64,000 nucleotides of DNA from Myxococcota bacterium (GTDB taxonomy: Bacteria; Myxococcota_A; Polyangia; Polyangiales; Sandaracinaceae). The position numbers were made by a program, and so were the translations under genes. Positions 46,585 through 62,027 of this stretch are shown here, one piece after another. A model generated the notes under the pieces. It saw nothing but the letters and a program-made list of their open reading frames with translations, did not search any database and was not told the DNA's origin. The stretch covers positions 32,001 to 96,000 of the forward strand of contig JAYZQJ010000007.1 of NCBI GenBank assembly GCA_036149055.1, in the 5' to 3' direction. Position 1 is the first letter of the stretch. Every line of letters starts with the position of its first letter.

Positions 46585-47028
46585 ATGCAGTCCCGATTCG
46601 TGCTCTACAGCGTGCTCGCGACCCTCTTCATCGGCGGCTTCGCCTTCGTGGCGGACGCGCTGGTGGTCTCGGACGAGGAGCACCTCGGCGAGCTGGCCGA
46701 GGCGGTGACCGAAGGCGACGGCCAGGCGCGGGTCGACGCGGCGATGCGCTGGATGGATCTCTCGCGCGCCGAGGTGACCGTCCGGCAGAACGGCTCGAGC
46801 GCCACCTTCGACGAGGGCGACGGCTTCCGGCTCCAGCGGGAGGTCGAGGACGCGCTCTCGGCGTTCCGCGACCCGGACGCGGAGGTGGTCCAGCGCTCGG
46901 TCGACGTCGACGGGGAGCGAGCCACCGTCGCCGTCCGGGTGCGCACCGGCGGCGCGGCCCACGACGCGAGCTTCCACCTCGTCCGGAGCGGGCAGGGCTG
47001 GCTCGTGGAGCGGCTCTCGACGCGCTGA
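46585..47028 (+). CDS. hypothetical membrane-anchored protein (NTF2-like C-terminus)
   Basis: N-terminal TM; VDGERATV...HLVRSGQGWLV. Confidence 0.7.
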   Translation: MQSRFVLYSVLATLFIGGFAFVADALVVSDEEHLGELAEAVTEGDGQARVDAAMRWMDLSRAEVTVRQNGSSATFDEGDGFRLQREVEDALSAFRDPDAEVVQRSVDVDGERATVAVRVRTGGAAHDASFHLVRSGQGWLVERLSTR

Positions 47029-47068
47029 CCTTTGCATCGGGCCCCGGCCTCCCTATGTCGGTGTCGTC

Positions 47069-48430
47069 ATGCACGTCATCAACCCGACCACGGGCGAGAA
47101 GGGCCAGCAGTTCGAGCTCCACACCGACGAGGAGGTGGAGGCGAAGCTGAAGCTCGCCGCCGGCTCCCAGGCGCAGTGGGCCCAGACCCCGCTCCATCAC
47201 CGCGCGGAGCTGCTCCGGCGCGTGGCCGAGAGCCTCCGGTCGCAGAAGCGGCCGCTCGCCGAGCTCATGACCCGGGAGATGGGCAAGCCGATCGCCCAGG
47301 GGGAGAGCGAGGCGGAGAAGTGCGCCTGGGTCTGTGACTACTACGCCGAGAACGCGGCCGCGTTCCTGGCCCGGGAGGACATCGAGACCGACGCGAGCGA
47401 GAGCTACGTCGCCCACCGCCCGTACGGCGTGGTCCTCGCGATCATGCCGTGGAACTTCCCCTTCTGGCAGCTCTTCCGGCACGCGGCGCCCGGGCTGATG
47501 GCCGGCAACGCCATCCTGCTGAAGCACGCCGCCAACGTGCCCGGCTGCGCCGAGGCGATCGAGCGCATCTTCGTCGAGGCCGGCTTCCTCCACGGCCTGG
47601 TGACCAACCTGCGCATGGACCACGACGTGTCCGAGCGGGTCATCCGCGATCCCCGGGTCGCGGGCGTCACCCTCACCGGCTCGACCGCGGCCGGCAAGAA
47701 GATCGCGTCGATCGCGGGCGAGGCGCTCAAGAAGACCGTGCTCGAGCTCGGCGGCAGCGACCCCTACGTCATCCTCGACGACGCCGACCTCGAGGAGGCG
47801 GTGGAGGCCTGCGTGAAGAGCCGGCTGATCAACAACGGCCAGAGCTGCATCGCGGCCAAGCGCTTCATCGTCACCGAGAAGAACCACGACGCCTTCGTCG
47901 AGCGCATGGTCGCGCGGATGGCGGACCAGTCGATGGGCGACCCGATGGAGGAGAGCACCGACGTCGGGCCGCAGGCGCGCGAGGACCTGCGCGACGAGCT
48001 GCACGCCCAGGTCGAGAAGAGCGTGGAGGCGGGCGCGACCGTGGCGCTCGGCGGGGAGATCCCCGACCGGCCCGGCTTCTTCTATCCGCCCACCGTGCTC
48101 ACCGGGGTGGCGAAGGGCATGCCGGCCTACGACGAGGAGCTCTTCGGCCCGGTCGCCGCGGTGATCCGCGCGAAGGACGAGGAGGAGGCGATCGCGATCG
48201 CGAACGACACCTCCTTCGGGCTGGGGGCGGCGGTGTTCACCGCCGACGTCGCGCGGGGCCGCGAGATCGCCGAGACCCGCCTGCACGCGGGCTGCTGCTT
48301 CGTGAACACGTTCGTGCGGAGCGACCCGCGGCTGCCGTTCGGCGGGGTGGGGGAGAGCGGCTACGGCCGCGAGCTCGCCCGCCAGGGCATCCTCGAATTC
48401 GTCAACCAGAAGACCGTCTACGTCGCCTGA
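47069..48430 (+). CDS. NAD(P)-dependent succinate-semialdehyde dehydrogenase family
   Basis: MPWNFP, LTGS, LELGGSD, GQSC, EELFGPV, GYGREL. Confidence 0.92.
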   Translation: MHVINPTTGEKGQQFELHTDEEVEAKLKLAAGSQAQWAQTPLHHRAELLRRVAESLRSQKRPLAELMTREMGKPIAQGESEAEKCAWVCDYYAENAAAFLAREDIETDASESYVAHRPYGVVLAIMPWNFPFWQLFRHAAPGLMAGNAILLKHAANVPGCAEAIERIFVEAGFLHGLVTNLRMDHDVSERVIRDPRVAGVTLTGSTAAGKKIASIAGEALKKTVLELGGSDPYVILDDADLEEAVEACVKSRLINNGQSCIAAKRFIVTEKNHDAFVERMVARMADQSMGDPMEESTDVGPQAREDLRDELHAQVEKSVEAGATVALGGEIPDRPGFFYPPTVLTGVAKGMPAYDEELFGPVAAVIRAKDEEEAIAIANDTSFGLGAAVFTADVARGREIAETRLHAGCCFVNTFVRSDPRLPFGGVGESGYGRELARQGILEFVNQKTVYVA

Positions 48431-48548
48431 TCGTCCGCCGACCGGGACCGTGTCGCTTTTGTGACGGGGCGCCGAAACGTGTTGAACGAATCGATTCGGG
48501 GAACATGATCGCGGCGTCTTGAGCGGAGACGAAAGACCATCTGGGAAG

Positions 48549-49652
48549 ATGGAGGGGCCGAGCGGTTTCGGGCTCGCCAACCTCTACGACTTCTTCGTCG
48601 AGATCGTCGTCCGCGAGCGGGTCTTCCTCACCCTGCTCGGCGTCGGCTTCCTGGTCGCCGCGCTCACCTACGACATCCCGCGGATCGCGATGTGGGTGGG
48701 CTTCGGGGTCGCCGGCTACTCCGCGGTCGCCAACGACAGCATCCAGACCATCGGCACCTTCATCGCGTCCAACCGCGAGCAGCGCTGGTGGCATCTCTGG
48801 CTGTTCATCGGCGGCATCTGGCTCGCGACCGTAGGCTACAGCTGGTGGGCCTACGACGGCGACGTCACCTACGGGCGACTCGCGGCGAAGGGCTTCGACG
48901 AGTCGCCGACCAGCTTCTCGTTCCTGCAGGTCGCGGCGCCGCTCTTCCTGCTCGTCCTGACCCGGCTGCGCATGCCGGTCTCGACCACCTTTCTCCTGCT
49001 GTCGAGCTTCGCCGCCGGCGCAGGCAGCGTCGCGTCGGTGATGACCAAGAGCCTGGCCGGCTACGGCGTCGCGTTCGGGGCGGCGTTCGTGATCTGGATG
49101 GCGACCACCAAGATCATGGACCGGCACTTCACCGGGCCGCCGGCTGGCTTCTGGCGGCCGTTCCAGTGGGTGACCAGCGGGCTGCTCTGGAGCGTCTGGA
49201 TCCAGCAGGACGCGGCCAACATCGCCGTCTATCTCCCTCGCCAGCTGAGCCCCATCCAGGTGCTCGCGTTCGGCGGAGTCGTGTTCGTGGGGCTCGGCTT
49301 CCTCTTCAAGATGGGCGGCGAGCGGGTCCAGGAGATCGTCGACGAGAAGTCGAACGTCGTCGACGTGCGCGCGGCCACCGTGATCGACCTCGTCTACGCG
49401 GTGATCCTCTACGTCTTCAAGATCTGGTCGAACGTGCCGATGAGCACGACCTGGGTGTTCATCGGGCTGCTGGGCGGCCGCGAGCTGGCGATGTCGATCC
49501 GCAAGAGCTCGGAGCTCAGCCTGAAGCAGGCCGGCAAGCTGATGGGGCGCGACGTGCTCGCGGCCGGCATCGGCCTGATCGTCTCGCTGGCCCTCGCCTA
49601 CGCGGTGAACCAGGACTTCCGCGACGAGGTCTGGAACACCTTCGCGGGTTGA
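48549..49652 (+). CDS. PiT-like multi-TM permease
   Basis: ANDSIQTIGT and QDAAN (PiT GAND-like), PVSTT and PMSTT repeats. Confidence 0.7.
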   Translation: MEGPSGFGLANLYDFFVEIVVRERVFLTLLGVGFLVAALTYDIPRIAMWVGFGVAGYSAVANDSIQTIGTFIASNREQRWWHLWLFIGGIWLATVGYSWWAYDGDVTYGRLAAKGFDESPTSFSFLQVAAPLFLLVLTRLRMPVSTTFLLLSSFAAGAGSVASVMTKSLAGYGVAFGAAFVIWMATTKIMDRHFTGPPAGFWRPFQWVTSGLLWSVWIQQDAANIAVYLPRQLSPIQVLAFGGVVFVGLGFLFKMGGERVQEIVDEKSNVVDVRAATVIDLVYAVILYVFKIWSNVPMSTTWVFIGLLGGRELAMSIRKSSELSLKQAGKLMGRDVLAAGIGLIVSLALAYAVNQDFRDEVWNTFAG

Positions 49653-49666
49653 GCGAGACTGCCGGC

Positions 49667-50176
49667 ATGAGCGACGAGCAGCGCATCGAGTCCTTCGAGG
49701 AGTTCTGGCCCTACTATCTGTCGGAGCATCGGAACCCGACCTCCCGCCGGCTGCACTTCGTCGGCACGAGCGGATTCCTGGCGAGCTGCGCGGCCAGCGC
49801 CGCCCTCCACCCGGTCCGCTTCCCGCTGGCGATGGCCGGCTTCGCGGCGATCGGGCGCGACGCGCTGAAGAAGGGCGAGACCGACGGCCCGTCCTTCAAG
49901 CACATCGCCGGCATGCTCGCCTGCGGCGTCGCCGGCTCCCCGCTCACCTTCCCCGCCGGCGTCGTCTTCGCCTACGGCTGCGCGTGGATCGGGCACTTCA
50001 AGGTGGAGCACAACCGCCCCGCGACCTTCAAGTACCCGCTCTGGTCGCTCGCGAGCGACTTCAAGATGTGGTCGCTGATGCTCCGCGGGAAGCTCTGGAG
50101 CGGCGACCCGCTCGAGGAGCTCGGCCTCGAGGACCCCGACGTGGAGCCGCCCCCCGCGCCCCACGTGATGGCCTGA
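49667..50176 (+). CDS. DUF962 / Mpo1-like membrane protein
   Basis: FWPYYLSEH, LHFVG, AWIGHFKVEHNRPATFKYP. Confidence 0.9.
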   Translation: MSDEQRIESFEEFWPYYLSEHRNPTSRRLHFVGTSGFLASCAASAALHPVRFPLAMAGFAAIGRDALKKGETDGPSFKHIAGMLACGVAGSPLTFPAGVVFAYGCAWIGHFKVEHNRPATFKYPLWSLASDFKMWSLMLRGKLWSGDPLEELGLEDPDVEPPPAPHVMA

Positions 50177-50186
50177 GTCCCCGACC

Positions 50187-50214
50187 TGGGAGGAGGGGAC
50201 TGGGAGGAGGGGAC
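50187..50214. repeat. 14-bp tandem duplication TGGGAGGAGGGGAC x2
   Basis: Copies at 50187-50200 and 50201-50214. Confidence 0.8.
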
Positions 50215-50279
50215 GGAGTGAACTTGTGAACTCACGTCGGCGTCATGCCTACGTAAGTTCACAAGTCAACTCCGTCCCC
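50209..50279. repeat. 71-bp inverted-repeat element (REP/MITE-like)
   Basis: 33-bp arms GGGGACGGAGT..ACTTGTGAACT.ACGT.GGC with 4 mismatches and a 5-nt loop. Confidence 0.8.
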
Positions 50280-51750
50280 ATGTCTTCGGATGGGGGCGGC
50301 GTCGGCGGCGGACCCACGGGGCGGCGAGCAGGACGGTGAGCCAGAGGGCGCTCGGGCGGGAGCGGGTCGCGCGGCAGCCGCAGCCTGCTGACTCGGGCGG
50401 CGAGGCGGGGCCGGCGTCCAGGGGCGCGCCGGCGTCGGGGCCCGGCGGCGCGAGGCCGAGGAGAGTCCGGAGCGCGGGCGCGGGGGCGACGACGCCGCGG
50501 CCATAGAGCGGGTCGTGGCCGGTCTCGTCGGGGGTCGCGAACGGCGCCGGCCGCGTGGTCTCGAGCAGCACGTCGTGGATCTCGGCGGCCGTGGCCTCGG
50601 GATCGGCGCTGAAGAGCAGGCCGGCGACGCCCGCCACCACGGGGCAGGCGGACGAGGTGCCGCCGAAGAGGCTCGTGTAGTCGGTGTCGTTCTCGCCCTC
50701 GGCGCCCTGGATGTCGGTCGTGAACGTGCCGGTCGGCGCGGTGAGGTCGAGCGACGGGCCGAAGTTGCTGAACGGCGCGGCCTCGTCGAAGAGGGTCAGG
50801 GCGCCCACCGCGATCACCCCGCGCACGCCGGTCAGCTCGTCGTCCGACAGCGCGCGGTTGTCGTTCCCGGCGGCGAAGACGACGAGCGCGCCGAGACCGC
50901 CGCGCCCGTTGTCGTGGAGGTCCTCCAGCACCGCCCGGAGCATCGGCGGGGCGTCGATGGGCTCGGCGAAGCCCCAGCTGTTCGAGACGACCGCCGCGCC
51001 CTGATCGAAGGCGTAGCGGAAGGCGGCGATGTCCGCGCTGAGCGGCGTGAGGCTGCCGCGCGTGCCCAGCAGGCGGACGCAGCGGAGCGTGCACTCGGGG
51101 CAGACCCCCGCCACGCCGACGCCGTTGTCGCCCACCGCCGCCGCGATGCCCGCGCACGCGGTCCCGTGCTCGTTCCCCGGCTCGCCCGGGACGAAGCTCG
51201 GGTCGTCGTCCTCGTCTCGCACGTCCCGGCCGCCGAGCAGCGCGGCCTCCAGGTCGGGGTGCGTCATGTCGCAGCCGTTGTCGACGATGACGATGGTGGT
51301 CGACGGGTCGCCGGTCTCGATCGCCCACGCCTCCTCGACGCCGATCCGCTCCAGGTACCACTGCCCGCCGTAGCGCGGATCGTTCGGGGGCACGTCGATC
51401 GCTTCCGTCTGCCGCGGCAGGTAGAGGTCGGGCATCACGTCGAGGAGGGCGCCGTCGCCCGCGAGGCGATCCGCCAGCGCCGCGCCGTCCCCCGACGCGT
51501 CACGCACCCGCCAGATGCCGAGCCGCGGGTGGATCGCGCGGGGCACGTCCAGGTCGCGTGAGGCGGCCCAGCGCGCGGCGTCGACCCCGGGCCGAACCCG
51601 CACCAGCGCGTGCGCCCCGACCTGCGCCTCGATGCGCGCGCCGCCCGCTTCGTAGGTCGTCGCCGTCAACGCGTCCGGCGCGGTCTGCGCAGACGCCATC
51701 GCGCCCTGCAGAAGAAAAAACGAAGCGATGAGATTGACAGCCGTTCTCAT
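50266..51750 (-). CDS. S8 subtilisin-like protease with a MYXO-CTERM-like tail
   Basis: IVDNG, HGTACAG, AAGN, GTSSACP; GCGC-TM-RRRRR tail; signal MRTAVNL...ASA. Confidence 0.92.
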   Translation of the reverse strand: MRTAVNLIASFFLLQGAMASAQTAPDALTATTYEAGGARIEAQVGAHALVRVRPGVDAARWAASRDLDVPRAIHPRLGIWRVRDASGDGAALADRLAGDGALLDVMPDLYLPRQTEAIDVPPNDPRYGGQWYLERIGVEEAWAIETGDPSTTIVIVDNGCDMTHPDLEAALLGGRDVRDEDDDPSFVPGEPGNEHGTACAGIAAAVGDNGVGVAGVCPECTLRCVRLLGTRGSLTPLSADIAAFRYAFDQGAAVVSNSWGFAEPIDAPPMLRAVLEDLHDNGRGGLGALVVFAAGNDNRALSDDELTGVRGVIAVGALTLFDEAAPFSNFGPSLDLTAPTGTFTTDIQGAEGENDTDYTSLFGGTSSACPVVAGVAGLLFSADPEATAAEIHDVLLETTRPAPFATPDETGHDPLYGRGVVAPAPALRTLLGLAPPGPDAGAPLDAGPASPPESAGCGCRATRSRPSALWLTVLLAAPWVRRRRRPHPKTWGRS

Positions 51751-51751
51751 T
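51733..51751. promoter_or_regulatory. putative Fur box overlapping a perfect -35 (TTGACA 51734-51739)
   Basis: ATTGACAGCCGTTCTCATT (minus strand GAGAATGAGAACGGCTGTCAAT) compared with the Fur consensus GATAATGATAATCATTATC; upstream of HmuY and TonB receptor genes. Confidence 0.65.
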
Positions 51752-51798
51752 CTCACCAAGGTAGCGCACCTTCGCGGCCCCACGGAAGAGGAAACACG

Positions 51799-52593
51799 AT
51801 GCGCTTGATACTCGGCCTGACCCTGACTCTCTTCGCCGTCGGTTGTGACGACGGCGCGATGGTCGTCGACGACGCCGGGACGACTCCCGAGACCGACGCC
51901 GGCCTCCCGCCCGGGGACTCGGGCGCTCCGCCCGTCGACTCCGGGGCGGCACGCGAGGTCGCCTGCGTCGACGAGTCGATCTCGCAGCTGATGCTCTTCG
52001 ACGACGTCTCGAGCGGCGCCATCACCGAGGAGAGCGCGGAGAGCGGCACCTTCGTGCACCACGTCGACGCGACCGCGGGCGGCCGGGCGCCGACCGAGAG
52101 CTACGTCTACGCGCGCTTCACCGACGCGGGCCTCGAGAAGGTCGAGATCGACGACGAGTCGGCGTTCGAGTCCAACGACTGGCACATCGCGCTCCGCCGC
52201 TTCGTCATCCGCGTCAACGGCGGCGTCTCGGGCCCGGGCACCGTCACCGCGGCCCGCACCGCCCCGGACACCGCCTTCGAGACCCTCGACGCCGTGCCGG
52301 ACGGGCTGATGTACCGCGAGGAGGCGTACTTCACCGACACCTGCGAGTACGTCTCCGACGGGTCGGGCATCGGCTCTCCCGCCACCGCCCTCGCGAGCTT
52401 CTGGACGTACGCCGGCTGCGTCGCGATGACCGGCAACGTCTACGTGGTCGCGCTCCCGAGCGGCCGTCACGTCAAGCTGCAGGTCCTCTCGTACTACAGC
52501 CCGGACGTCCAGACGACCTGCGACGAGAGCAGCACCATCAGCAGCCCGTCGGGCGCGGGCAACCTGCGAATCCAGTGGGCCTTCATCGACTGA
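51799..52593 (+). CDS. hmuY: HmuY-family lipoprotein
   Basis: AVGC lipobox; VDAT...YVY, WHIALRRFVIRVNGGVSGPG, VKLQVLSYY. Confidence 0.82.
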   Translation: MRLILGLTLTLFAVGCDDGAMVVDDAGTTPETDAGLPPGDSGAPPVDSGAAREVACVDESISQLMLFDDVSSGAITEESAESGTFVHHVDATAGGRAPTESYVYARFTDAGLEKVEIDDESAFESNDWHIALRRFVIRVNGGVSGPGTVTAARTAPDTAFETLDAVPDGLMYREEAYFTDTCEYVSDGSGIGSPATALASFWTYAGCVAMTGNVYVVALPSGRHVKLQVLSYYSPDVQTTCDESSTISSPSGAGNLRIQWAFID

Positions 52594-54056
52594 TCGCGCT
52601 CGGCGCGGCGTGCCTGACGCTCGCCTGCGAGGCGGACGTGGGCGCCACGCGCGCCGCCCAGCGCCCGGACACGCCGGACACCACCGATCTCCCGCCGGTG
52701 TTCGGCGACGCCGACGTGGTCGAGACCCACGACTCGGTGGGGGGGCGCTTCCGCGTCCACTTCACACGCGCCGGACAGCACGCCGTGCCCCTGGACGACG
52801 ACGACATGGACGGAACCCCCGACTACGTGCAGGAGGTCGGCGAGGAGTACGAGCGGGTGCTCGCGTTCTTCACCGACGAGCTCGGCTTCGCCGCCCCGCT
52901 CTCCGACGCGGACGTGCCCGACAACGGCGGCGACGATCGCTTCGACGTCTACCTGCTCGACTTCCCGCCCGGCGCCGACGGCTCGTTCCGGCGCGACGAG
53001 TGCACGCTCGCGCCGACGCGCTGCCCCGGCCACATGCTGCAGGAGAACGACTTCGCCGGCCGGGGCTATCCCTCGCGCTCGGTCGCGACCCGCATCCTCG
53101 CCAGCCACGAGCTCTTCCACGCCGTACAAGCCGGCTACGAGGCCGAGCCCGGCGTCGTGGTCGGGGAGGGCACCGCGGTGTGGGCGTCCGAGGCCTACGA
53201 CCCGAGCCTCGACGACTTCGAGAGCTTCGTCGGCGGGTACCTCTCTCGGCCCGAGCGATCGCTCGGCCAGGAGCCCACCGGGCCGGTCGACCCGTTCTCC
53301 TATGGCGCCGGCCTCTTCTTTCGCTTCCTCGAGGAGCGTCACGACCGCGGGGTGATCCGCGAGCTGTGGGAGACGCCCGCGCCTGGTGGCGCGATCGACT
53401 GGCTCGCGGCGCTCGACGCCGTCCTCGCGACCCGCGGGAGCAGCTTCCCGGAGGCCTTCGCCGAGCTCGCCCGGTGGAACCTCTACACCGCGCGCCGCGC
53501 CGACGCGGAGCTGGCCTGGGCCGAAGGGGCCGCCTACCCGCCGGTCACCGAGCGCGCGGTCGAGCTCCCCTACGCCGACGACCTGGTGCGCGTGTTCCCC
53601 GCCTCGGTCCGCTACTACGCGGCGCCCACCGGCGGCCGGGGTGAGGTCGAGGTGGCGTCGACCGCGGCCGATCCGGCGGACCTCGCGGACGTGCGGCTGC
53701 TGCTGGCGTTCGAGGAGGACGGCCGCATCACCCACACCCGGGAGACCGCCGAGGCCCGGCTGAGCGCGCCCGCGCAGACCGCCACGACCGTGCACGTCGC
53801 GCTCGTCGGCACCGCGACCTCGGGCGGCAGCCGGCGCGTCGGGCTCTGCGTCGGCTCTCCGGCCGAGGTCTCGGCGTGCCTGGGCGAAGGGACCGAGGCG
53901 GACGGCGGGCCGACCCCGGTCGACGCCGGCGCCCCCGACGCAGGGCTCGCCCCTCCCACTTCCGGCGGCTGCGCGGTGGGCACGCCGCGCGCCCTGCCCG
54001 CGGGGTGGGCGCTCCTCGCGGCCCTCGGGCTCCTCGCGCGCAGGAGGCGGCGGTGA
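52575..54056 (+). CDS. zinc metalloprotease (HExxH; MXAN_6640-like) with MYXO-CTERM
   Basis: D.D.DGTPDYV, HELFHAVQ, EGTAVW; GGCAV-TM-RRRRR. Confidence 0.85.
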   Translation: MGLHRLIALGAACLTLACEADVGATRAAQRPDTPDTTDLPPVFGDADVVETHDSVGGRFRVHFTRAGQHAVPLDDDDMDGTPDYVQEVGEEYERVLAFFTDELGFAAPLSDADVPDNGGDDRFDVYLLDFPPGADGSFRRDECTLAPTRCPGHMLQENDFAGRGYPSRSVATRILASHELFHAVQAGYEAEPGVVVGEGTAVWASEAYDPSLDDFESFVGGYLSRPERSLGQEPTGPVDPFSYGAGLFFRFLEERHDRGVIRELWETPAPGGAIDWLAALDAVLATRGSSFPEAFAELARWNLYTARRADAELAWAEGAAYPPVTERAVELPYADDLVRVFPASVRYYAAPTGGRGEVEVASTAADPADLADVRLLLAFEEDGRITHTRETAEARLSAPAQTATTVHVALVGTATSGGSRRVGLCVGSPAEVSACLGEGTEADGGPTPVDAGAPDAGLAPPTSGGCAVGTPRALPAGWALLAALGLLARRRRR

Positions 54057-56092
54057 AGCGCGCGCTCGTCGCGGTCCTGTTCATCGGGCTGGGCTCCACG
54101 CCCGCCGCGGCACAGGAGCGCGAAGCCGATGACGTCGTGCTGAGCGACGAGGACGTGCTGAGCGACGAGGACGTGCTGAGCGACGGGGACGTGCTCGAGC
54201 CGGCGCAGACCGAGGACGGCGACGAGCGCGATCTCTTCGACGAGGACGAGCTCACCGTGCCCGAGGTGGTCGTCACCGGCTCGCGCATCGAGGAGCCGGC
54301 CGGGCAGGCGGCGGTGGCGACCGAGGTGATCCGCCGCGAGGAGATCGAGCAGATGGGCGCGCGGGACGCCGCCGAGGTGCTCGAGGAGCGCGCGGGCCTG
54401 CAGCTCCAGCGCTCCTTCCGCGGCACCGAGCTGTGGCTGCGCGGCATGGACCCGGCCTACACGCTCGTGCTCGTGGACGGGGACCGGGTGCCCGGTCGGA
54501 TCGGCGGCGCCGTCGACCTGTCCCGCTACGGCGTCGAGAACATCGAGCGCATCGAGATCGTGCGCGGCCCGAGCTCGGCGCTCTACGGCTCCGACGCGAT
54601 CGGCGGCGTCGTCAACCTGATCACCCGCGACTCGGACCGCGACTTCGAGGCGGACGCGCTCGCGTCGTACGGCCTCAACAACGTCATCGACGCCACCGCG
54701 CGGGTCGCGGGCCGGCCCGAGGAGCACCTCCGGCTCCGGCTCGCGGGCGGGCTCCACTACGCCGACGCCTTCCGTCGCGGCGACGACGAGGCGACGACCG
54801 GCAGCTCCCGCCTCCAGTGGTCGCTCGGCGGTCGCGTCGACTGGCGGCCCGACGCCCGCCACCGCTTCCGGGTCAACGTCGACTACCTCCAGCTCCAGAT
54901 GCAGGGCGTGGACGAGGGCGCGGGCGGCGCGCTCTTCGACCGCACCCAGCTCCAGGAGCAGGCCCGGGTCTCGGGCGAGCACGTGCTGCGCGGCGCCGAC
55001 GGCCTGACGCTGCTCACGCGCTTCACCTACAACCAGTTCCGCGAGCAGTACCTCAACGACCAGCGCGGCAGCAGCCAGCTCGACGACTACGAGGACAACC
55101 GCGAGCACATGGGCCAGGTGACGACGCTCGTGCGCTTCAACCTCGAGGGGCTCGGCACGCACTCCGTCACCGTCGGGTTCGAGGAGCTCTTCCAGTCCCT
55201 CGACTCGGATCGGCTGACGACCTTCGCCCGCCGCGCGCGCTTCGCCGCGCTCGCTCAGGACGAGTGGATCCCCTGGGAGGACGGCGACGCCTCCCTGACC
55301 ATCGTCCCCGGGCTGCGCTACGACGTCGACTCGCAGTTCGGCGATCAGCTCTCGCCCAAGCTCTCGGTCCGCTTCGACCCGGTCTCGCAGCTCGTCCTGC
55401 GCGCCACCTACGGCCGCGGCTTCCGCGCCCCGTCGTTCCAGCAGCTCCTCCTGCGCTTCGAGAACCCGACCGTCGGCTACATCGTCGCCGGCAACCCGAG
55501 CCTCGGCGCGGAGACCTCGCACGGCGTCGACGCCGGCTTCGAGTGGCGACCGATCGACGAGCTCTCGCTCTCGGCGAGCTTCTTCCGCAACGACATCGAG
55601 GGGCTCATCGCCACCGTCACCGTCGACGACCCGACCGCGACCGGCACCCTCTTCAGCTACGCCAACGTCTCGAGCGCGTGGACCATGGGCGTCGAGTCGA
55701 CCGCGACCTTGCGGGTGGACGACGTGCTCGGCGTCATCGCGGGCTACACCCTCACCGAGACCTGGGACGGCCAGAACGAGCGGCACCTCGAGGGGCGCGC
55801 CCGTCACCGCATCACCGCCGCCGCGCGGGTGGCCTACGAGCCCTGGGAGATCAGCTTCGTCGCGCGCGGCGCGCTCATGGTCGACCGCGTCTACTACGTG
55901 GACGTCGACGACGACGGGATCGAGGAGGCGCTGTACCCCGATCCGATCGCGCAGGTCGACCTGCGCCTCTCGAAGACGTTCACGCGCCACCTCGAGCTCT
56001 TCGTCGGCATCGACAACCTGCTCGACGCCGGAGACGCCTACAGCGTGCTTCGGCCCTTCACCGTCTACGGCGGCGCACGCGGCCGCTACTGA
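54053..56092 (+). CDS. TonB-dependent receptor (CirA/HmuR/BtuB-like)
   Basis: VVVTGSR, LVLVDG, IERIEIVRGPSSALYGSDAIGGVVNLIT, GFRAPS, GNPSL, DNLLD; ends RGRY. Confidence 0.95.
   Translation: MKRALVAVLFIGLGSTPAAAQEREADDVVLSDEDVLSDEDVLSDGDVLEPAQTEDGDERDLFDEDELTVPEVVVTGSRIEEPAGQAAVATEVIRREEIEQMGARDAAEVLEERAGLQLQRSFRGTELWLRGMDPAYTLVLVDGDRVPGRIGGAVDLSRYGVENIERIEIVRGPSSALYGSDAIGGVVNLITRDSDRDFEADALASYGLNNVIDATARVAGRPEEHLRLRLAGGLHYADAFRRGDDEATTGSSRLQWSLGGRVDWRPDARHRFRVNVDYLQLQMQGVDEGAGGALFDRTQLQEQARVSGEHVLRGADGLTLLTRFTYNQFREQYLNDQRGSSQLDDYEDNREHMGQVTTLVRFNLEGLGTHSVTVGFEELFQSLDSDRLTTFARRARFAALAQDEWIPWEDGDASLTIVPGLRYDVDSQFGDQLSPKLSVRFDPVSQLVLRATYGRGFRAPSFQQLLLRFENPTVGYIVAGNPSLGAETSHGVDAGFEWRPIDELSLSASFFRNDIEGLIATVTVDDPTATGTLFSYANVSSAWTMGVESTATLRVDDVLGVIAGYTLTETWDGQNERHLEGRARHRITAAARVAYEPWEISFVARGALMVDRVYYVDVDDDGIEEALYPDPIAQVDLRLSKTFTRHLELFVGIDNLLDAGDAYSVLRPFTVYGGARGRY
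54137..54195 (+). repeat. 18-bp tandem repeat (VLSDED x3, third copy VLSDGD)
   Basis: GTGCTGAGCGACGAGGAC x3.3 with one mismatch. Confidence 0.85.
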
Positions 56093-56100
56093 GGTACGAG

Positions 56101-57735
56101 ATGACACGATACGTGACGTGGTTCATGGCGCTCACCCTGCTGGGATGCGCGCCCACCCTCACCCCGGACGGCGACGACGCCGGGGTGATCGACTCCGGCC
56201 CGTGGACCGGCGGGGACATCCCGCCGTCGAGCGGCAGCTTCACCCACTCCGTCGCGGACGGCGTCGTGACCACGGTGGTGGACGCGACGAGCGCCACGGA
56301 CTGGCAGCACCTCGACATGGACAGCGGCCACTCGGTCGAGCCGAGCGAGGGCTGGGAGCTGGCCTTCTCGCGTTTCCGCGTGCGCATCAACGGCGGGACC
56401 ACCGGGAGCGGGGGGGTGCAGGTCGCGGCGCTCGACGGCGTCGCCTGGGACGACGTGACCCGGGCGCCCGAGGAGGGCTGGACCGTCCCCGGGCCCGACG
56501 GTGAGGTCGACGACGACACCGAGCCCGACAACGTGTTCAACGACGGCGAGCGCGACTGGTACGACTACGACGTCGAGACGCACACGCTGACCCCCCGTGA
56601 CGTGACCTACGTCGTGGCCTCGACCGAGGGGGCCTTCTTCAAGCTGCGCTTCGAGGCCTACTACGACGACGCGGGCTCACCCGCGGTGGTGCGCTTCCGC
56701 TGGGCCCCGGTCGCGGCGCCCGCCTCGATGCTGCCCGACGCGGGCACGGGCGGCCCGGTCGACGGCGGCGTCGCTCCCGACTCCGGCACCGAGCCGCTGC
56801 CCGACCACGCCATCACGGTGAACGCCGGCGACGGCGCGGCGTGGGTCTACGTCAGCGCGACCGAGGGCGTCGTCACGCCCGCCGACCCCGAGAACGACCC
56901 GAGCTGGGACATCGCGTTGCGTCGCACCGAGGTCCGCACCAACTCCGGCACCAGCGGGGTCGGCCTGGCCGGCGCCCGGATCGACGGCTCGGGCCTCGCG
57001 TTCGACGCGCTGACGGACGCCTCGACGTTCGGCTTCGTGGTGGACGAGGTGGTCGACACCGGCCGGCCCGGCACCGAGCCGACCAGCCTCAGCCCCGTGC
57101 TCACCGACTGGTACGACTACGATCCGGCCACCCACAGCGTGGCGCCGAGCGACCTCACCTTCGTCGTGCGCACCGGGGTCGGCGGCTACGCGAAGCTCCG
57201 CATCTGGGGCTGGGACGACGGCACGTACCAGCTCTCGCTCGTGCCGATCGAGCGGCGTGTCGAGCGCCTGGAGCTCGACGTCGACGCGACGAGCAGCGAC
57301 GCGTGGACCTACCTGAGCCTGCGCGACGGCGCGCTCGTGACGGTGATGGACCCGAGCGCCGAGACGCACTGGGACCTCGGGATCTCGCGCACCCGGTTCC
57401 GCACCAACTCCGGCACGAGCGGCGGAGGCATGGGCGCCGCGGTGGAGACCCCCGTCGACACGATCGCCGCGCTCGGCGACGCGCCGACCGAGGGCTGGAC
57501 CCCCGACGAGACCATCACGCCGGCCCGCCCCGGCGCCGAGCCCTACAGCGCCAACCCGGTGCTCGAGGGCTGGTACGACTACGACCCGGCGACCCACGTC
57601 GTGTCGCCCCGCCCGGTGGTCTACGCCGTGCGCACCGCGGACGGACACGTCGGCGCCCTGCGCATCCTCAGCTACGCGAGCGGCACCTACCGCGTCGCGA
57701 TCGCCTTCGCTGGACCCGGACGTACTTCCTTCTGA
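56101..57735 (+). CDS. lipoprotein with three tandem HmuY domains
   Basis: LLGC lipobox; three repeats of W(E/D)(L/I)..(S/R)R....N(G/S)GT.G followed by WYDYD..TH. Confidence 0.85.
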   Translation: MTRYVTWFMALTLLGCAPTLTPDGDDAGVIDSGPWTGGDIPPSSGSFTHSVADGVVTTVVDATSATDWQHLDMDSGHSVEPSEGWELAFSRFRVRINGGTTGSGGVQVAALDGVAWDDVTRAPEEGWTVPGPDGEVDDDTEPDNVFNDGERDWYDYDVETHTLTPRDVTYVVASTEGAFFKLRFEAYYDDAGSPAVVRFRWAPVAAPASMLPDAGTGGPVDGGVAPDSGTEPLPDHAITVNAGDGAAWVYVSATEGVVTPADPENDPSWDIALRRTEVRTNSGTSGVGLAGARIDGSGLAFDALTDASTFGFVVDEVVDTGRPGTEPTSLSPVLTDWYDYDPATHSVAPSDLTFVVRTGVGGYAKLRIWGWDDGTYQLSLVPIERRVERLELDVDATSSDAWTYLSLRDGALVTVMDPSAETHWDLGISRTRFRTNSGTSGGGMGAAVETPVDTIAALGDAPTEGWTPDETITPARPGAEPYSANPVLEGWYDYDPATHVVSPRPVVYAVRTADGHVGALRILSYASGTYRVAIAFAGPGRTSF

Positions 57736-57748
57736 AAGGGACAGGATC

Positions 57749-59740
57749 ATGCGCGCTCGAATTCTCATCGCACTCCTCCTGACCGCCTGCGGGAGCGCCT
57801 CGGCGCCGCCCGTCCAGTCCGCCGACGACTCGGCGGGCGTGAGCGAGGCGCCCCCGGCGCCGCCCGGCGACGACGGCGTCGACGTCGAGGCGGGGCTCTT
57901 GCCGCCGATGCCGGTGGCCGTGACCAGCTTCGGGGCGGCCGTCTCCGGCGACCACCTCTACGTGCTCGGCGGCCACCACGGCACGCCTCACCAGTACTCG
58001 CGGGAGGGGCAGTCGCGCTCGCTGTGGCGCGTCCCGCTCGTCGGCGGCGAGTGGGAGCAGGCCGGGCACATCGAGCACGGCCTCCAGGGCCTCGCGCTCG
58101 TCGCCCACGACGGAGTGGTCTGCCGCTTCGGCGGCAACCGCATCCTCAACCCCGCGGGCGAGCCGGCGAACATGCGCTCGGTGGACGACGCCGCCTGCTT
58201 CTCGCCGGCGACGAACGAGTGGACGGCGCTGCCGGAGCTGCCCGCGGGCCGCTCGTCGCACGAGGCGGCGGTGATCGGAGAGGTCGCCTACGTCGCGGGC
58301 GGATGGCAGCTCGACGACGGCGGTCCGACCGACGCGACCTGGGCCGAGGACGTGCTCGCCCTCGACCTGCACGGAGGAGATCGGGAGTGGCGCCGCATCG
58401 AGGCCCCCTTCCGGCGCCGCGCCGTGGGCGTGGCCAGCGCCGCCGGCAAGCTCGTCGTGCTCGGCGGCCTGACCCCGGAGCGCGAGGTCTCGCGTCAGGT
58501 GGACGTGCTCGACCCGGCCACCGGCGAGTGGAGCCGCGGTCCCGACTTCCCGAGCGACGCGTTCGGCGCCGCGGCGGTCGGCGTGGGCGACCGCGTCTAC
58601 GCCTCGGCGCGCGACGGCGTCGTCTACGCCTGGCAGGTGGGCAGCGAGGCGTGGGCCCCGGCCGCGTCGCTCGCGTTCCCGCGCTTCTTCCACCAGCTCC
58701 GGCCCGCGGCCGACGGGGAGCTGATCGCGGTCGGCGGCATCAGCGGCATGCACACCGCGGGGCGGACCCGGCACGTGGAGCGCGTCGCCCTCGACGCCAC
58801 CGCGCCGCAGCTCCTCACCTGGACCGCGAACTACCCGGGCGCGGCGAAGAACCGGCAGGCGGCGTTCGTGAACGACGACTACCTCTACCTCTTCGGCGGC
58901 AACAACAGCCTCGGCCAGCACGACTTCGAGCCGGAGAACTTCGTCTCGGACGGCTGGCGGCTGCACCTCCCGTCGATGACCTGGGAGTCGATCGCCCCCT
59001 ACCCCGCGAACCGCCAGACCATGCAGACCGTCACCCTCGGCGGCCAGGGCGTCGCGGTCGGCGGCTTCGGCCACGACGGCGAGGCGGCGGTGACCCATCC
59101 GCAGGCGTTCGCCTTCGACTTCGCGTCCGGCCAGTGGTCCGAGCGCGGGGGCCTGCCCCGGGGGCGCACCCAGTTCGGGCTCGTGAGCCACGGCGAGCGC
59201 CTCTGGATCTTCGGAGGCCTCAACTACGATCCGTCGCGAGAGGGTCAGGCGGCCTTCGATCACGTGACCGGCTCGCTGGCCACGCCCGAGGGCGAGCCCG
59301 GTGGCGCCTTCGCGGACGCCTCGGTCGAGCTCCCCGGCCCCCGCCGCGCGTTCGCGGGCGCCGCGCTCGAGGGCCGCTACTACATCGTCGGCGGCATGCA
59401 GGAGGGCTTCCAGCTCGTCGACGACTGCCTCGTCCACGACTTCGACTCGGGCGACTTCGCGCCGATCGCCTGCCCGCGCCGCACGCGGCTGAGCGGCCAC
59501 CTCATCCCCCTCGAGGGCAAGCTCTACCTGCTCGGCGGCTCGTACCGCGGCGACGACAGCATGGAGACCGATCGCTCGGTCGAGGTCTACGACCCGGCCA
59601 CGAACACGTGGGAGGTCCTGGTGGAGGAGCTCCCCTTCGACACCCGGCACATGCACGCGCTCGCCTACCGCGATCGCATCCTGATGTTCAGCACCCACAC
59701 CGAGGACCCGAGGGCCCGGGTCGCGCTCCTGGCGCCCTGA
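57749..59740 (+). CDS. Kelch-repeat (likely double propeller) lipoprotein
   Basis: LTAC lipobox; many LYVLGG / YIVGG...W repeats. Confidence 0.85.
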   Translation: MRARILIALLLTACGSASAPPVQSADDSAGVSEAPPAPPGDDGVDVEAGLLPPMPVAVTSFGAAVSGDHLYVLGGHHGTPHQYSREGQSRSLWRVPLVGGEWEQAGHIEHGLQGLALVAHDGVVCRFGGNRILNPAGEPANMRSVDDAACFSPATNEWTALPELPAGRSSHEAAVIGEVAYVAGGWQLDDGGPTDATWAEDVLALDLHGGDREWRRIEAPFRRRAVGVASAAGKLVVLGGLTPEREVSRQVDVLDPATGEWSRGPDFPSDAFGAAAVGVGDRVYASARDGVVYAWQVGSEAWAPAASLAFPRFFHQLRPAADGELIAVGGISGMHTAGRTRHVERVALDATAPQLLTWTANYPGAAKNRQAAFVNDDYLYLFGGNNSLGQHDFEPENFVSDGWRLHLPSMTWESIAPYPANRQTMQTVTLGGQGVAVGGFGHDGEAAVTHPQAFAFDFASGQWSERGGLPRGRTQFGLVSHGERLWIFGGLNYDPSREGQAAFDHVTGSLATPEGEPGGAFADASVELPGPRRAFAGAALEGRYYIVGGMQEGFQLVDDCLVHDFDSGDFAPIACPRRTRLSGHLIPLEGKLYLLGGSYRGDDSMETDRSVEVYDPATNTWEVLVEELPFDTRHMHALAYRDRILMFSTHTEDPRARVALLAP

Positions 59741-59748
59741 GCGTCAGC

Positions 59749-61185
59749 TCACCAAGGGACCGGGCGGTAGTCCTTCAGGAAGAGCCCGTAGGGGTGCTCC
59801 CCGGTGAGGAAGCCCTCGAAGATCGGGTCGACGATCCGGGCCGCGCCGTCGACGATGTCGAGCGGGGGGTGGAAGCCGTGCACCTCGGTCTTCCTCGTCG
59901 CGATCGCGGCCGGGTCCTCGTCGGTCACCCACCCGGTGTCCACGCTGTTCATGTGGATGCCGTCGGCGAGGTAATCGGAGGCGGAGGTGCGCGTCATCAT
60001 GTTGAGCGCGGCCTTCGCCATGTTCGTGTGAGGGTGCCGGTCGGTCTTGAAGCGGCGGTAGAACTGCCCCTCCATCGCGCTGACGTTGACGATGTGCTTG
60101 TCGCGCCCGGGCGTGCGTCGCATCAGGTCGCGCAGCCGCGCGTTGATCACGTAGGGCGCCACCGCGTTGACGAGCTGCACCTCGAGGAGCTCCACCGTCG
60201 GAACCTCGTCGAGCGCGAGCCGCCAGGAGTTGCGTCCGCGGAGATCGACCTGCTGCCCGTCCGCGTCGAGCTGGTTCGCGGGGAAGAGGCGGAGATCGCG
60301 GCCGAGGTCTTCGGGCAGCAGCGCGCTCTGGGAGAGCGCCGCCGAGTCCGGGAGATCGGCCTCGGCGCGGACCTCGACGAGCGAGCGCGCCTCCGGGGGC
60401 AGGGCCTTCGCCTCCTCGCCCTGCATCAGGTGGCGATAGAAGCCCGCGGGGCGACGCACCGTCTGGCACGCGTTGTTGAGGATGAAGTCGAGGCGATCGC
60501 GGGTCTCGTTCACGTGCGCGCAGAAGCGCTCCACGCTCGGCGTGTGCCGGAGGTCGAGCCCGTAGACCGCGAGGCGATCGCGCCAGTCCTCGAAGTCGAC
60601 CTCGCGCGCGTAGCGAGCGGCGGCGTCGTGCGGGAAGCGCGTGGTCACGATCACCGAGGCGCCGGCCCGGAGCAGCTTGATGGCCGCCTGGTAGCCGATC
60701 TTCACGCGTGAGCCGGTCACGATCGCGACCCGCCCCGAGAGATCGGCCGACCGCGTGCGGCGCTCGTAGTTGAGGTCGCCGCAGGGGATGCACATCTGGT
60801 CGTAGAAGTGGTGGACCTCGCGGAAGGTCCGCTTGCAGATGTAGCACTTCCGGTCTTCGCTCAGCTCCGGCGCGTCGCCCTCGGGCAGCGGCGGCGGGAG
60901 CGCGGGGGGCGTCTCGTAGAGCGCGGCCGTCCGGGCCCGACGGATCCCGGTGCTGCGCAGCACCGCCTCGTCGCGCGCCTTCGCGGCCAGCTTCTTCTTT
61001 CGCCGCCGCGCCTTGGCCGCCGCGCGCAGCTCGGACTTCAGCGGGAGCGTCACCCGCCCGGCCGCCTCGAGCAGCGCCCTCCGCGCGTCCTCGGGGAGCA
61101 CGTCGAGCAGCGTGCGATCCTCGGCGATCGCCTCCAGCGTCTCCCGGCACGCCTCGAGCTTCCCGGCGATGTCGTCTCGACTCAC
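59749..61185 (-). CDS. atypical SDR oxidoreductase with an N-terminal Zn-finger
   Basis: CYIC...CIPC, TGSRVKIG, NNA, NVSAMEG, HTNMAK, VDTGW. Confidence 0.88.
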   Translation of the reverse strand: MSRDDIAGKLEACRETLEAIAEDRTLLDVLPEDARRALLEAAGRVTLPLKSELRAAAKARRRKKKLAAKARDEAVLRSTGIRRARTAALYETPPALPPPLPEGDAPELSEDRKCYICKRTFREVHHFYDQMCIPCGDLNYERRTRSADLSGRVAIVTGSRVKIGYQAAIKLLRAGASVIVTTRFPHDAAARYAREVDFEDWRDRLAVYGLDLRHTPSVERFCAHVNETRDRLDFILNNACQTVRRPAGFYRHLMQGEEAKALPPEARSLVEVRAEADLPDSAALSQSALLPEDLGRDLRLFPANQLDADGQQVDLRGRNSWRLALDEVPTVELLEVQLVNAVAPYVINARLRDLMRRTPGRDKHIVNVSAMEGQFYRRFKTDRHPHTNMAKAALNMMTRTSASDYLADGIHMNSVDTGWVTDEDPAAIATRKTEVHGFHPPLDIVDGAARIVDPIFEGFLTGEHPYGLFLKDYRPVPW

Positions 61186-62027
61186 GCGGGGGGCATAGCG
61201 TCGAGAGCGGCGGCGCGCATGATCTCGACCGGCGCCTCCCGCCCCGTCCACCGCTCCAGCGCGAGCGCCGCCTGCCAGACGAGCATGCCGAGGCCGTCGA
61301 CCGCGCGGAGGCCGAGGCGCCGGGCCCGGGCCAGCGCGGCGGTCTCGAGCGGGGCGTAGACGAGGTCGACGACCACCGCGCCGGAGCCGAGCGACTCGAG
61401 CGGGAGCGCGGCCGCGAAGCCCTCGGGATCGGCGGCGCTCTCCAGGGTCGCGCTGGTGGCCTGCACGAGCAGATCGGCCTCGCCCTCGAGCGGGCCGTGA
61501 GAGAGGCGGGCGCCCGCGAGGGGCTCGAGGTCCGCCACCAGGGCCTCCGCCTGCGCCGGCCGACGCGCGTGCACGCGGATGGAGGCCGCGCCCGCCTCGG
61601 CGAGCCCGGCCACCGCCGCCCGCGCCGCGCCGCCCGCGCCGACCACCCACACCCTCCGCCCGGCGAGCGCGACGCCGGCGTCCTCCAGGGAGCGCACGAG
61701 CCCCGGCGCGTCGGTGTTGGAGCCGACCAGCGCGTCCCCCTCCCGCGCGATCGTGTTCACCGCGCCGATCGCCGCCGCCGCCGGCTCCACGCGATCGAGG
61801 TGCGCCATCACCGCGCGCTTGTGGGGCACGGTGACGTTGGCCCCGAGCGCGCCGAGGGCCCGGAGCCCCTCGACCGCGGCGCCGAGCGCCTCCGGGCGCA
61901 CGTCGAACGCGAGGTAGCGCGCGTCGACGCCCAGGGCCGCGAGCGCGGCGGCGTGGATCGCGGGCGAGCGGGAGTGCGCGACCGGGTGCCCCAGGAGGGC
62001 CAGCAGACGGGTGGCCGCGGTGCTCAC
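61182..62027 (-). CDS. aroE: shikimate dehydrogenase
   Basis: GHPVAHSRSP, NVTVPHK, GAVNT, NTD, GAGGAA, DLVY, DGLGMLVWQA. Confidence 0.95.
   Translation of the reverse strand: MSTAATRLLALLGHPVAHSRSPAIHAAALAALGVDARYLAFDVRPEALGAAVEGLRALGALGANVTVPHKRAVMAHLDRVEPAAAAIGAVNTIAREGDALVGSNTDAPGLVRSLEDAGVALAGRRVWVVGAGGAARAAVAGLAEAGAASIRVHARRPAQAEALVADLEPLAGARLSHGPLEGEADLLVQATSATLESAADPEGFAAALPLESLGSGAVVVDLVYAPLETAALARARRLGLRAVDGLGMLVWQAALALERWTGREAPVEIMRAAALDAMPPA

Follow-up and report, generated by a model that had tools for sequence, protein, structure and literature searches.

In Porphyromonas gingivalis, HmuY-fold lipoproteins lie beside the TonB receptor HmuR, and surface proteases, the gingipains Kgp and RgpA, would make heme available to the system; Kgp also sheds HmuY from its lipid anchor (PMC10100897). 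Characterised HmuY proteins ligate the heme iron through His-His, His-Met or Met-Met pairs, the Bacteroides fragilis homologue BfrB (HmuY Bf-2) holds heme via Y89 and Y165 with no iron ligation and prefers protoporphyrin IX (PPIX), and a third B. fragilis homologue, BfrC, does not bind either heme or PPIX (PMC12106395). We describe here a six-gene locus in a 64,000-nucleotide stretch of DNA (the window) from a member of the Sandaracinaceae (Myxococcota; assembly GCA_036149055.1, contig JAYZQJ010000007.1), which is probably a new form of heme uptake of the Hmu type, served by dedicated, and probably bound, proteases and working by a mechanism that we infer. It joins a subtilisin-type protease (S8), a single-domain HmuY protein (Y1) and a zinc metalloprotease (HEX), together module A, to a TonB-dependent receptor (TBDT), a triple HmuY protein (Y3) and a Kelch protein, together module B. 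We favour, with moderate confidence, a reading in which the locus encodes an iron-repressed surface heme-harvesting line: the proteases open heme proteins and Y1, seated on HEX, takes hold of the porphyrin, which is then imported through Y3 and the receptor for its iron. The parts belong to known families and both modules have been flagged in tables for Myxococcus xanthus; new here are the model of a direct Y1-HEX complex and, in relatives, apparent polyproteins that join S8 to HEX.

Compared with the P. gingivalis system, in which the gingipains are general cysteine proteases with genes of their own, the present locus has an M30-like zinc protease and an S8 protease that travel with a HmuY gene, and one of them is predicted to bind Y1. 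It also differs in that Y1 has no His/Met pair, hmuSTUV are not in the locus, heme biosynthesis genes are present and the host is free-living. With the Bacteroidota hmuYRSTUV operon it shares the placing of a HmuY gene (Y3) next to the receptor, whereas hmuS, T, U and V are all missing from it. The nearest described genes in myxobacteria are those of M. xanthus, where the layout of MXAN_1316-1321 is that of a predicted hemin transport locus (PMC3986340; PMC9548883). Like module B, MXAN_1314/1316-1321 has a receptor followed by HmuY and a Fur box; the M. xanthus genes are induced in predation and in tan variants. Here, however, HmuY is tripled, a Kelch lipoprotein takes the place of HemS and the ABC genes, and a protease module is attached. 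The hemin function of MXAN_1314/1316-1321 is itself a prediction in these papers (PMC3986340; PMC9548883). Module A has its presumed counterpart in MXAN_6641-6640, the same gene pair in the same order and co-induced, of which MXAN_6641 is listed as a HmuY homologue with a putative Fur box (PMC9548883). MXAN_6640 is listed there as a hypothetical protein, however, and the entries consulted mention neither a role as a protease nor a complex, a partner of the S8 type or conserved synteny.

Published tables show an iron-type co-expression of these genes. During predation on S. meliloti, log2 fold changes at 2 and 6 h were 2.57 and 2.47 for MXAN_6641 and 2.38 and 1.64 for MXAN_6640, and those of MXAN_1316/1317 were 2.22/2.38 at 2 h (PMC9548883, Table S2A). 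Across four tan, iron-scavenging strains MXAN_6641 was up 25-, 103-, 41- and 7-fold and MXAN_6640 12-, 44-, 14- and 3-fold, the wild-type tan values being 25 and 12 (PMC3986340, supplement). An earlier note on this DNA, made from the sequence alone, had proposed RNA-seq with and without iron; in both published M. xanthus datasets the presumed orthologues of Y1 and HEX do rise with the hemin genes. We base this presumed orthology on the name of the family and on three loci of Myxococcus (L107, L111, L148; L and G numbers are our labels for the loci and genomes compared). By analogy with these M. xanthus data, we infer iron or Fur regulation of the locus described here. Iron competition shapes myxobacterial predation, and FurA and a role for iron in predation are established, with heme unmentioned in the main text of that study (PMC11388931); the myxobacterial iron-predation literature that we searched centres on siderophores. 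The same note knew of no characterised myxobacterial system of this form. Parts had in fact already been flagged (MXAN_6641; MXAN_1316-1321), but we likewise found no description of the protease-HmuY module, its synteny or its complex in the literature searched, most subscription journals lying outside the search.

The six neighbouring genes are all present as open reading frames of the expected families. On the forward strand, Y1 (51799-52593, 264 aa; a lipoprotein of a disulfide-rich myxobacterial subfamily) is followed by HEX (52575-54056, 493 aa), the receptor (54053-56092, 679 aa; a likely heme importer), Y3 (56101-57735) and the Kelch beta-propeller lipoprotein, a 663-aa accessory (57749-59740), with overlaps of 19 and 4 nt and then gaps of 8 and 13 nt; the run stops at the Kelch gene, beyond which the next gene is convergent. 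S8 (50266-51750, reverse strand, 494 aa) is divergent, with 48 bp between its start codon and that of Y1, as had been noted. A genome-wide search of the source genome (G000, 96% complete) places all four of its PF14064 (HmuY) matches and its single NF045524 match inside the locus. We considered misassembly of the join between the modules and rejected it: the path from S8-Y1-HEX to the receptor start is bridged by contigs from three other runs in three studies, a count that leaves out the possible source run, and a metagenome contig of 99% identity (L166) carries all six genes in the same order. Near-identical DNA comes mainly from seawater and marine metagenomes, and the closest named record to HEX is a Sandaracinaceae metagenome-assembled genome (L086, 65%).

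Tight as the spacing is here, the one coupled operon that had been proposed is not a conserved six-gene unit. The locus consists of two modules that usually lie apart: the idea of a single conserved operon was rejected when A and B were found at 2.90 and 7.20 Mb on the one contig of G303 and at 4.65 and 0.34 Mb in G319. Across 301 genomes drawn from the phylum, NF045524 was over its cut-off in 56 genomes (66 matches), and PF14064 matches occurred in 83. For 40 of these 66 NF045524 matches the gene immediately upstream on the same strand is a HmuY gene, and for 45 a HmuY gene lies within 5 kb; conversely, of 42 Y1-clade matches, 34 have an over-cut-off NF045524 match no more than 5 kb away. A second set comprised 178 non-redundant HEX loci (tblastn, at least 140 bits; the best HEX matches rather than a random sample, many on short contigs), leaving out the window and its 99% twin L166. 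Within 8 kb of HEX, Y1 is present in 149 of these, S8 in 93 and a receptor in 22, and for the 99 loci flanked by 5 kb on either side the figures are 86, 60 and 13. The S8-Y1-HEX trio occurs in several gene orders and orientations. At 30 of the 178 loci receptor, Kelch, ABC or HemS genes lie within 8 kb, in 21 gene orders; L124 has TBDT-HmuY-HemS-PBP-FecCD-ABC-Y1-HEX on one strand (PBP, periplasmic binding protein), and in four Nannocystis loci Y1-HEX follows ABC genes. On the HEX tree, made by a quick method from 194 rows without L254, the loci with a linked receptor fall in scattered places; the tree cannot separate repeated joining from repeated loss. Receptor orthologues, by contrast with the proteases, are directly upstream of the multi-HmuY gene in all 20 module B loci fetched; a Kelch gene is present in 12 of the 20, Y1 in two and either protease in none. 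The proposed co-conservation of the proteases with HmuY and receptor genes thus stands for the single HmuY protein, with which both proteases occur, but not for the multi-HmuY loci. One locus (L063) was dropped as a frameshift artefact, and L052/L099 and L142/L199, being the same sequence, were counted once.

The HMM search that had been suggested places both HmuY proteins over the cut-off. Y1 scores 38.8 bits against PF14064 (cut-off 27), its model (pLDDT 97.2) has the HmuY all-beta fold, and all 11 Foldseek rows listed with E <0.001 are HmuY-family structures, the best being BfrB (8B6A). A hydrophobic stretch and lipobox-like Cys16 predict a lipoprotein anchor. C56, C182, C207, C241, Y104, R134, R138, Y204 and Y233 are invariant in 103/103 sequences and a further Cys pair is present or absent jointly in 102 of the 103; with four invariant Cys and this co-occurring pair, the domain is likely to be disulfide-braced. 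In the putative pocket, R134, R138, Y204 and Y233 are kept in 125/125 and an aromatic residue (F/Y135) in 121/125, whereas M210 is not fixed (M in 68 and T in 56 of 125). BfrB, the best sequence and fold match to Y1, has no axial ligand and its R88/Y89 align to R134 and F(Y)135. It differs in that Y165 aligns to V208 of Y1, with invariant Y204 nearby in sequence, and in that Y1 is predicted to have two to three disulfides and carries an additional N-terminal helix, which forms the predicted interface with the protease. By this analogy, binding of the porphyrin ring without axial ligation is the most likely reading of Y1. A HmuY protein of this kind would depend on a protease for release of its ligand, in keeping with the pairing of the Y1 and HEX genes. 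A search for longer Y1 forms gave one full-domain match (P0001), a Cys-rich lipoprotein without a HEX domain.

HEX belongs to NF045524 (MXAN_6640_HExxH; 234.5 bits, cut-off 140) and ends in a MYXO-CTERM sorting signal (TIGR03901, 24.3 bits, cut-off 20). H178, E179, H182 and E198, which form the HExxH motif and third-ligand Glu, and Y243 are invariant in 122/122, and from the motif HEX is predicted to be a gluzincin-type zinc metalloprotease. No Pfam match was obtained, and the ESM Atlas returned only DUF6055/MXAN_6640-type clusters. Its model (pLDDT 96.3) combines an M30-like gluzincin domain with a C-terminal PPC-like beta-sandwich. The closest fold is that of lugdulysin (M30; 7BB8; Z 21.5, rmsd 3.5, 287 residues aligned), the next match having Z 14.0. 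HEX shares with the lugdulysin (hyicolysin-type) enzymes the fold and the HExxH with downstream Glu, but it is only 13% identical, has no Pfam match, is predicted to be membrane-anchored and carries the C-terminal sandwich. A lipobox Cys18 at the N-terminus (52575-52628), in addition to the MYXO-CTERM, makes an apparent double anchor, although the start codon is uncertain; a loose lipobox pattern is found in 46/123 HEX homologues.

A physical link between these two proteins is supported by structural prediction. Y1 and HEX were folded together with Zn and heme (the heme was unscored and the Y1 linker was outside the model), giving an ipSAE of 0.61 against 0.00 for the best of three controls. 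The mark applied to this score is reached by 116/157 solved complexes and 2/215 mismatched pairs, and serves as a rough guide here (own alignments, ligands present). Runs share at least 68% of contacts with a Y1 partner pLDDT of at least 92, and memory of a like complex is unlikely because a sequence search found no solved HEX relative. On the HEX side the modelled interface comprises the loop 224-240, residue 327 and beta-sandwich residues 337-341 and 418-419 (R339, S419), and on the Y1 side 58-69 in the N-terminal helix (D58, I61-L64), 97, 99, E120 and the loop 184-193. R134, F/Y135, R138, Y204 and Y233 are not among the listed contacts; with the ring-binding residues R134, F/Y135 and Y204 outside the interface, the pocket would, according to the model, stay free. 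From residue numbering, the protease cleft may lie near this pocket. R339 is kept in 120/125 non-redundant Y1-linked pairs, where it is tied for the most conserved residue of its domain, and is lost in HEX proteins linked to other HmuY types (n=23; top residues I/N/S); D58 of Y1 is kept in 115/125 and E120 in 97/125. For inter-protein covariation in the 125 pairs, predicted contacts have a mean Z of 0.91, exceeded by 0/2000 random sets, whereas 8% of within-interface permutations attain it and none of the top 100 pairs is in the interface. Direct Y1-HEX binding is a prediction that the model supports.

S8 is a clear member of Peptidase_S8 (PF00082, 149.7 bits) with a signal peptide, and its triad and oxyanion residues (D157, H195, S366 and N296) are invariant in 66/66 aligned orthologues; the active sites of both proteases are intact. 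Among solved structures, profile comparison puts it closest to mirolase (8EHE, E 2.5e-62), an enzyme that degrades hemoglobin. The earlier note gave both proteases Cys-TM-polyArg tails (TM, transmembrane segment). HEX is over the MYXO-CTERM cut-off, as above, while S8 reaches only 17.4 bits (cut-off 20) with the tripartite Cys-TM-basic layout visible; a loose tail pattern matches 67/75 S8 and 125/136 HEX homologue tails. S8 proteins of this kind form their own clade, whose 22 matches, spread over 20 genomes, all score at least 445 bits, the next match scoring 284. HEX is no more than 5 kb away from 20 of them, and 17 of these had built the profile; of the five matches outside the profile, three adjoin HEX, the fourth lies on a different contig from it and the fifth is solitary. 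No S8 orthologue was found in four Myxococcus/Hyalangium/Nannocystis genomes, two of them Myxococcus. As judged from its distribution, S8 is dispensable, an optional helper of the module.

In some relatives the two proteases share one reading frame. This arrangement occurs at five distinct loci, with joints at L052:10361-10546(-), L060:2484-2669(-), L061:10448-10633(-), L062:8809-8994(+) and L102:7812-7997(+), each joint being a complete internal MYXO-CTERM whose polyArg runs into a lipoprotein signal. L062 has no ATG, GTG or TTG in the 62 codons shown, and the other four loci have possible internal starts. At two further loci from distant lineages (L047:9025-9210(-) and L142:7917-9986(+)), HEX reads through its MYXO-CTERM into a HmuY lipoprotein with no stop, an ATG being available for the second protein in L047. 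We rejected simple domain fusion as an account of the long S8-HEX and HEX-HmuY frames because the linkers are full MYXO-CTERM and lipoprotein signals; the S8-HEX frame is, from its sequence, an apparent two-protease polyprotein. In the window itself S8 and HEX are separate genes. This form bears on the mechanism of MYXO-CTERM sorting, and a word search in the text of the MYXO-CTERM preprint (10.1101/2023.06.07.544157) gave neither 'polyprotein' nor 'internal'.

Module B is probably a heme locus, as judged by the neighbours of receptor orthologues. The receptor has the TonB barrel (PF00593) and plug (PF07715). Orthologues of about 40% identity lie with HmuY and HemS/ChuX in L246, L247, L078, L085 and L124; in Myxococcus sp. 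and Nannocystis genomes (40-41%) they are followed by HmuY and HemS/ChuX, and the best Myxococcus sp. match (41%) heads a TBDT-HmuY-HemS-PBP-FecCD-ABC cluster, an arrangement like that reported for MXAN_1316-1321 (PMC3986340; PMC9548883). Y3 scores 179.1 bits against PF14064 (cut-off 27) over three stretches, with domains at about 56293-56703, 56839-57216 and 57295-57684, and appears to be a lipoprotein (hydrophobic stretch, lipobox-like Cys16). Each domain has a WYDYDxxTH motif, in which the His is conserved; no second conserved His/Met was found among 19 homologues aligned, and the Tyr and His of the motif may be candidate ligands. The Kelch protein, recognised by Kelch Pfam matches and in the ESM Atlas only through generic Kelch clusters with low recognition, also has a lipobox-like Cys. 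Its H81, H315, H391, H505 and M550 are invariant in 20/20 homologues and two Cys are also kept, a pattern that suggests a metal or heme site. An acidic N-terminal extension of the receptor contains a short 18-bp tandem repeat (54138-54183) at which Logan contigs of three runs break. A HugZ query in the HEX-locus survey marked only L120, which is also receptor-bearing, and HugZ-like matches in G000 (C14) and L255 were rejected as heme oxygenases, being far under TIGR04109.

A single Fur-like box had been proposed in front of the operon. A strong box is present (51730-51748, with an overlapping second site at 51736-51754), but it lies over the first 7 codons of S8, 51-69 bp upstream of Y1, and not in the 48-bp gap. 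It matches 12/19 positions of the E. coli Fur consensus. With a matrix derived from 22 sites that lie upstream of TBDT orthologues at other loci, it scores 18.1 bits, the best in the 64 kb window and rank 12 in the genome. A box is found at the same position in relatives (e.g. L046, L053, L108, L121), and 22/27 receptor upstream regions, the source of the 22 matrix sites, have at least 12/19 matches to the E. coli consensus (shuffles 0/27). Five of the six top-scoring box loci examined in G000 precede genes for the uptake or storage of iron (imelysin, FecCD/ferritin, PepSY or receptor genes) and the sixth a transhydrogenase, and the genome has a Fur gene (PF01475, 132.4 bits). Upstream of Y1, boxes of at least 14 bits occur at 9/16 loci with a receptor and 16/123 without. 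Elsewhere in the genome, strong boxes at G000:C137:28701 and G000:C230:1742 (L248, L253) head sets of imelysin, di-heme oxidoreductase or DUF4856, and HTTM/VKGC-like genes; imelysin and HTTM genes also follow module B in L067. A 24.1-bit box (G000:C169:10744; L252) lies upstream of NAD(P) transhydrogenase genes, and at C47:6498-6580, C196:284-366 and C70:23573-23655 of G000 a motif that scores on the Fur matrix is repeated with a spacing of about 41 bases, probably as a repeat array and not as Fur boxes.

Taken together, these observations can be arranged into a working model. Low iron would lift Fur from one box common to the divergent S8 and Y1 promoters. S8 and HEX would be anchored at the surface through their MYXO-CTERM and lipoprotein signals, a localisation that we take from PMC11980579, and HEX would hold Y1, its loop 224-240 and beta-sandwich residues R339 and S419 facing the N-terminal helix, E120 and loop 184-193 of Y1. 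S8, where present, may open or pre-cut the substrate; the HEX-Y1 complex would then cut heme proteins of prey or detritus and hold the freed porphyrin, Y1 gripping the ring in the manner of BfrB without a His/Met axial ligand. By analogy with HmuY and HmuR, Y3 would relay the porphyrin to the receptor, and a heme oxygenase encoded elsewhere in the genome (PF01126, on C218) would release the iron. With genes for hemB and ferrochelatase the cell makes heme for itself, so the gain is probably iron. A bolder extension, which we hold to be quite unlikely, is that Y1-HEX is a cut-and-catch machine for covalent heme c: HEX would excise a CXXCH heme-peptide from prey cytochromes, and Y1 would grip the ring of a heme that keeps its own histidine and pass it to the receptor. 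If true, this would be a physically coupled protease-hemophore that reaches an iron pool ordinary hemophores cannot extract, across predatory Myxococcota, and that some Sandaracinaceae-level relatives would make as a two-protease polyprotein for myxosortase and lipoprotein signal peptidase to cleave. More generally, the locus is a concrete and conserved candidate for capture by a predator of heme iron from prey proteins, testable in M. xanthus. The uncharacterised NF045524 family gains a predicted binding partner and pathway, and a HmuY-fold protein bound to a protease would widen the HmuY family to bacteria other than the host-associated Bacteroidota and to a different way of working.

A number of results weigh against heme harvesting. 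No His/Met axial ligand is conserved in the alignments of 125 Y1 sequences, and the HmuY fold does not itself prove heme binding because neither heme nor PPIX is bound by BfrC. Most module A loci have neither a Fur box nor a nearby receptor: a box of at least 14 bits is upstream of only 25/139 Y1 genes (shuffles 1.2%), and a receptor orthologue (E 1e-60) is found in only 10/39 genomes with a Y1-clade gene (drafts, with four candidates scored per genome). The modules and their parts also occur singly. Y1 stands without an over-cut-off HEX in G073, G088 and G143, the same-genus genome G301 has module B while HEX was not found there with the HEX query, and S8 of G151 has neither partner within 19 kb. 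The receptor is under all NCBIfam cut-offs, and its sequence by itself does not place it among the heme receptors (TIGR01785, 189.8 bits against a cut-off of 316.85; TIGR01786, 150.6 against 323.75), although the Myxococcus orthologue beside HemS is also under the hemin-model cut-off, at 181.8. No gene for the inner-membrane step was found: G000, at 96% completeness, has no HemS (PF05171) match, and tblastn with the periplasmic binding and permease proteins of Myxococcus gave no match in it. Kinship can explain the R339 pattern, which follows clades. Finally, Table S3A of PMC9548883, which covers comparisons with E. coli and Streptomyces, has no entry for MXAN_6641, 6640, 1316 or 1317.

Several of these points would be expected if module A were instead a general surface protein-degrading unit in which Y1 no longer handles heme and serves HEX as adaptor, chaperone or inhibitor, placed with Fur boxes and heme genes in some lineages only. 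We regard this as unlikely, though it is the alternative that we take most seriously. It would account for the lack of a conserved axial ligand and for the minority of loci with a box (25/139) or genomes with a receptor orthologue (10/39), and in the model the contact surface reaches the HEX loop that immediately precedes invariant Y243, a possible seat for an inhibitor. It leaves unexplained, however, why R134, R138, Y204 and Y233 are kept in 125/125 sequences and an aromatic 135 in 121 when none is a listed contact, why a link with heme genes is seen repeatedly, in 21 gene orders, and why the M. xanthus pair is co-expressed with hemin genes in two datasets. The proteases could also act on the HmuY proteins themselves, HEX or S8 cutting the flexible linker of Y1 or Y3 to release soluble hemophores rather than digesting prey proteins. 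Kgp provides a precedent, in that it releases HmuY from the lipid that anchors it (PMC10100897); in both Y1 and Y3 the lipid Cys is followed by a long linker of low complexity, and a stable Y1-HEX contact would favour shedding. The modelled contact nonetheless uses the folded domain of Y1 (the linker lies outside the model), module B has no nearby proteases in 20/20 loci, and two unrelated proteases seem excessive for the purpose, all of which makes shedding very unlikely in our view.

The cargo, too, might differ. Of the alternatives, we give least weight to a tetrapyrrole other than heme (a metal-free porphyrin, a chlorophyll breakdown product or a corrinoid) that is imported or mopped up. 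BfrB, whose structure is the nearest solved one to Y1, prefers PPIX (PMC12106395), the receptor scores almost equally on B12 and hemin models (190.8 and 189.8 bits), and the marine origin of most near-identical DNA would suit such a ligand. HemS/ChuX beside receptor orthologues and the Fur-like boxes nevertheless argue for heme, and no cobalamin riboswitch or other Rfam match was found in 47000-62000. Heme harvesting remains the reading that we prefer.

Some smaller observations concern the surroundings of the locus. No sigma-70 promoter or terminator was found at it, and RNA run X20, for which contigs only were used, covers scattered pieces of the locus from which level and strand cannot be read. 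The flanking genes encode a weak PHO4-like membrane protein (48519-49652, under cut-off) and an Mpo1-like protein (49667-50176), neither of which adjoins module A in relatives. Eight loci titled Pseudomonadota, Enterobacterales, Klebsiella or Comamonas (L125, L127, L128, L130, L136, L140, L141 and L161) have a module A nested among Myxococcota on the HEX tree and are likely to be mislabelled. One genome, G296, carries three full copies of module A, on C40, C100 and C118.

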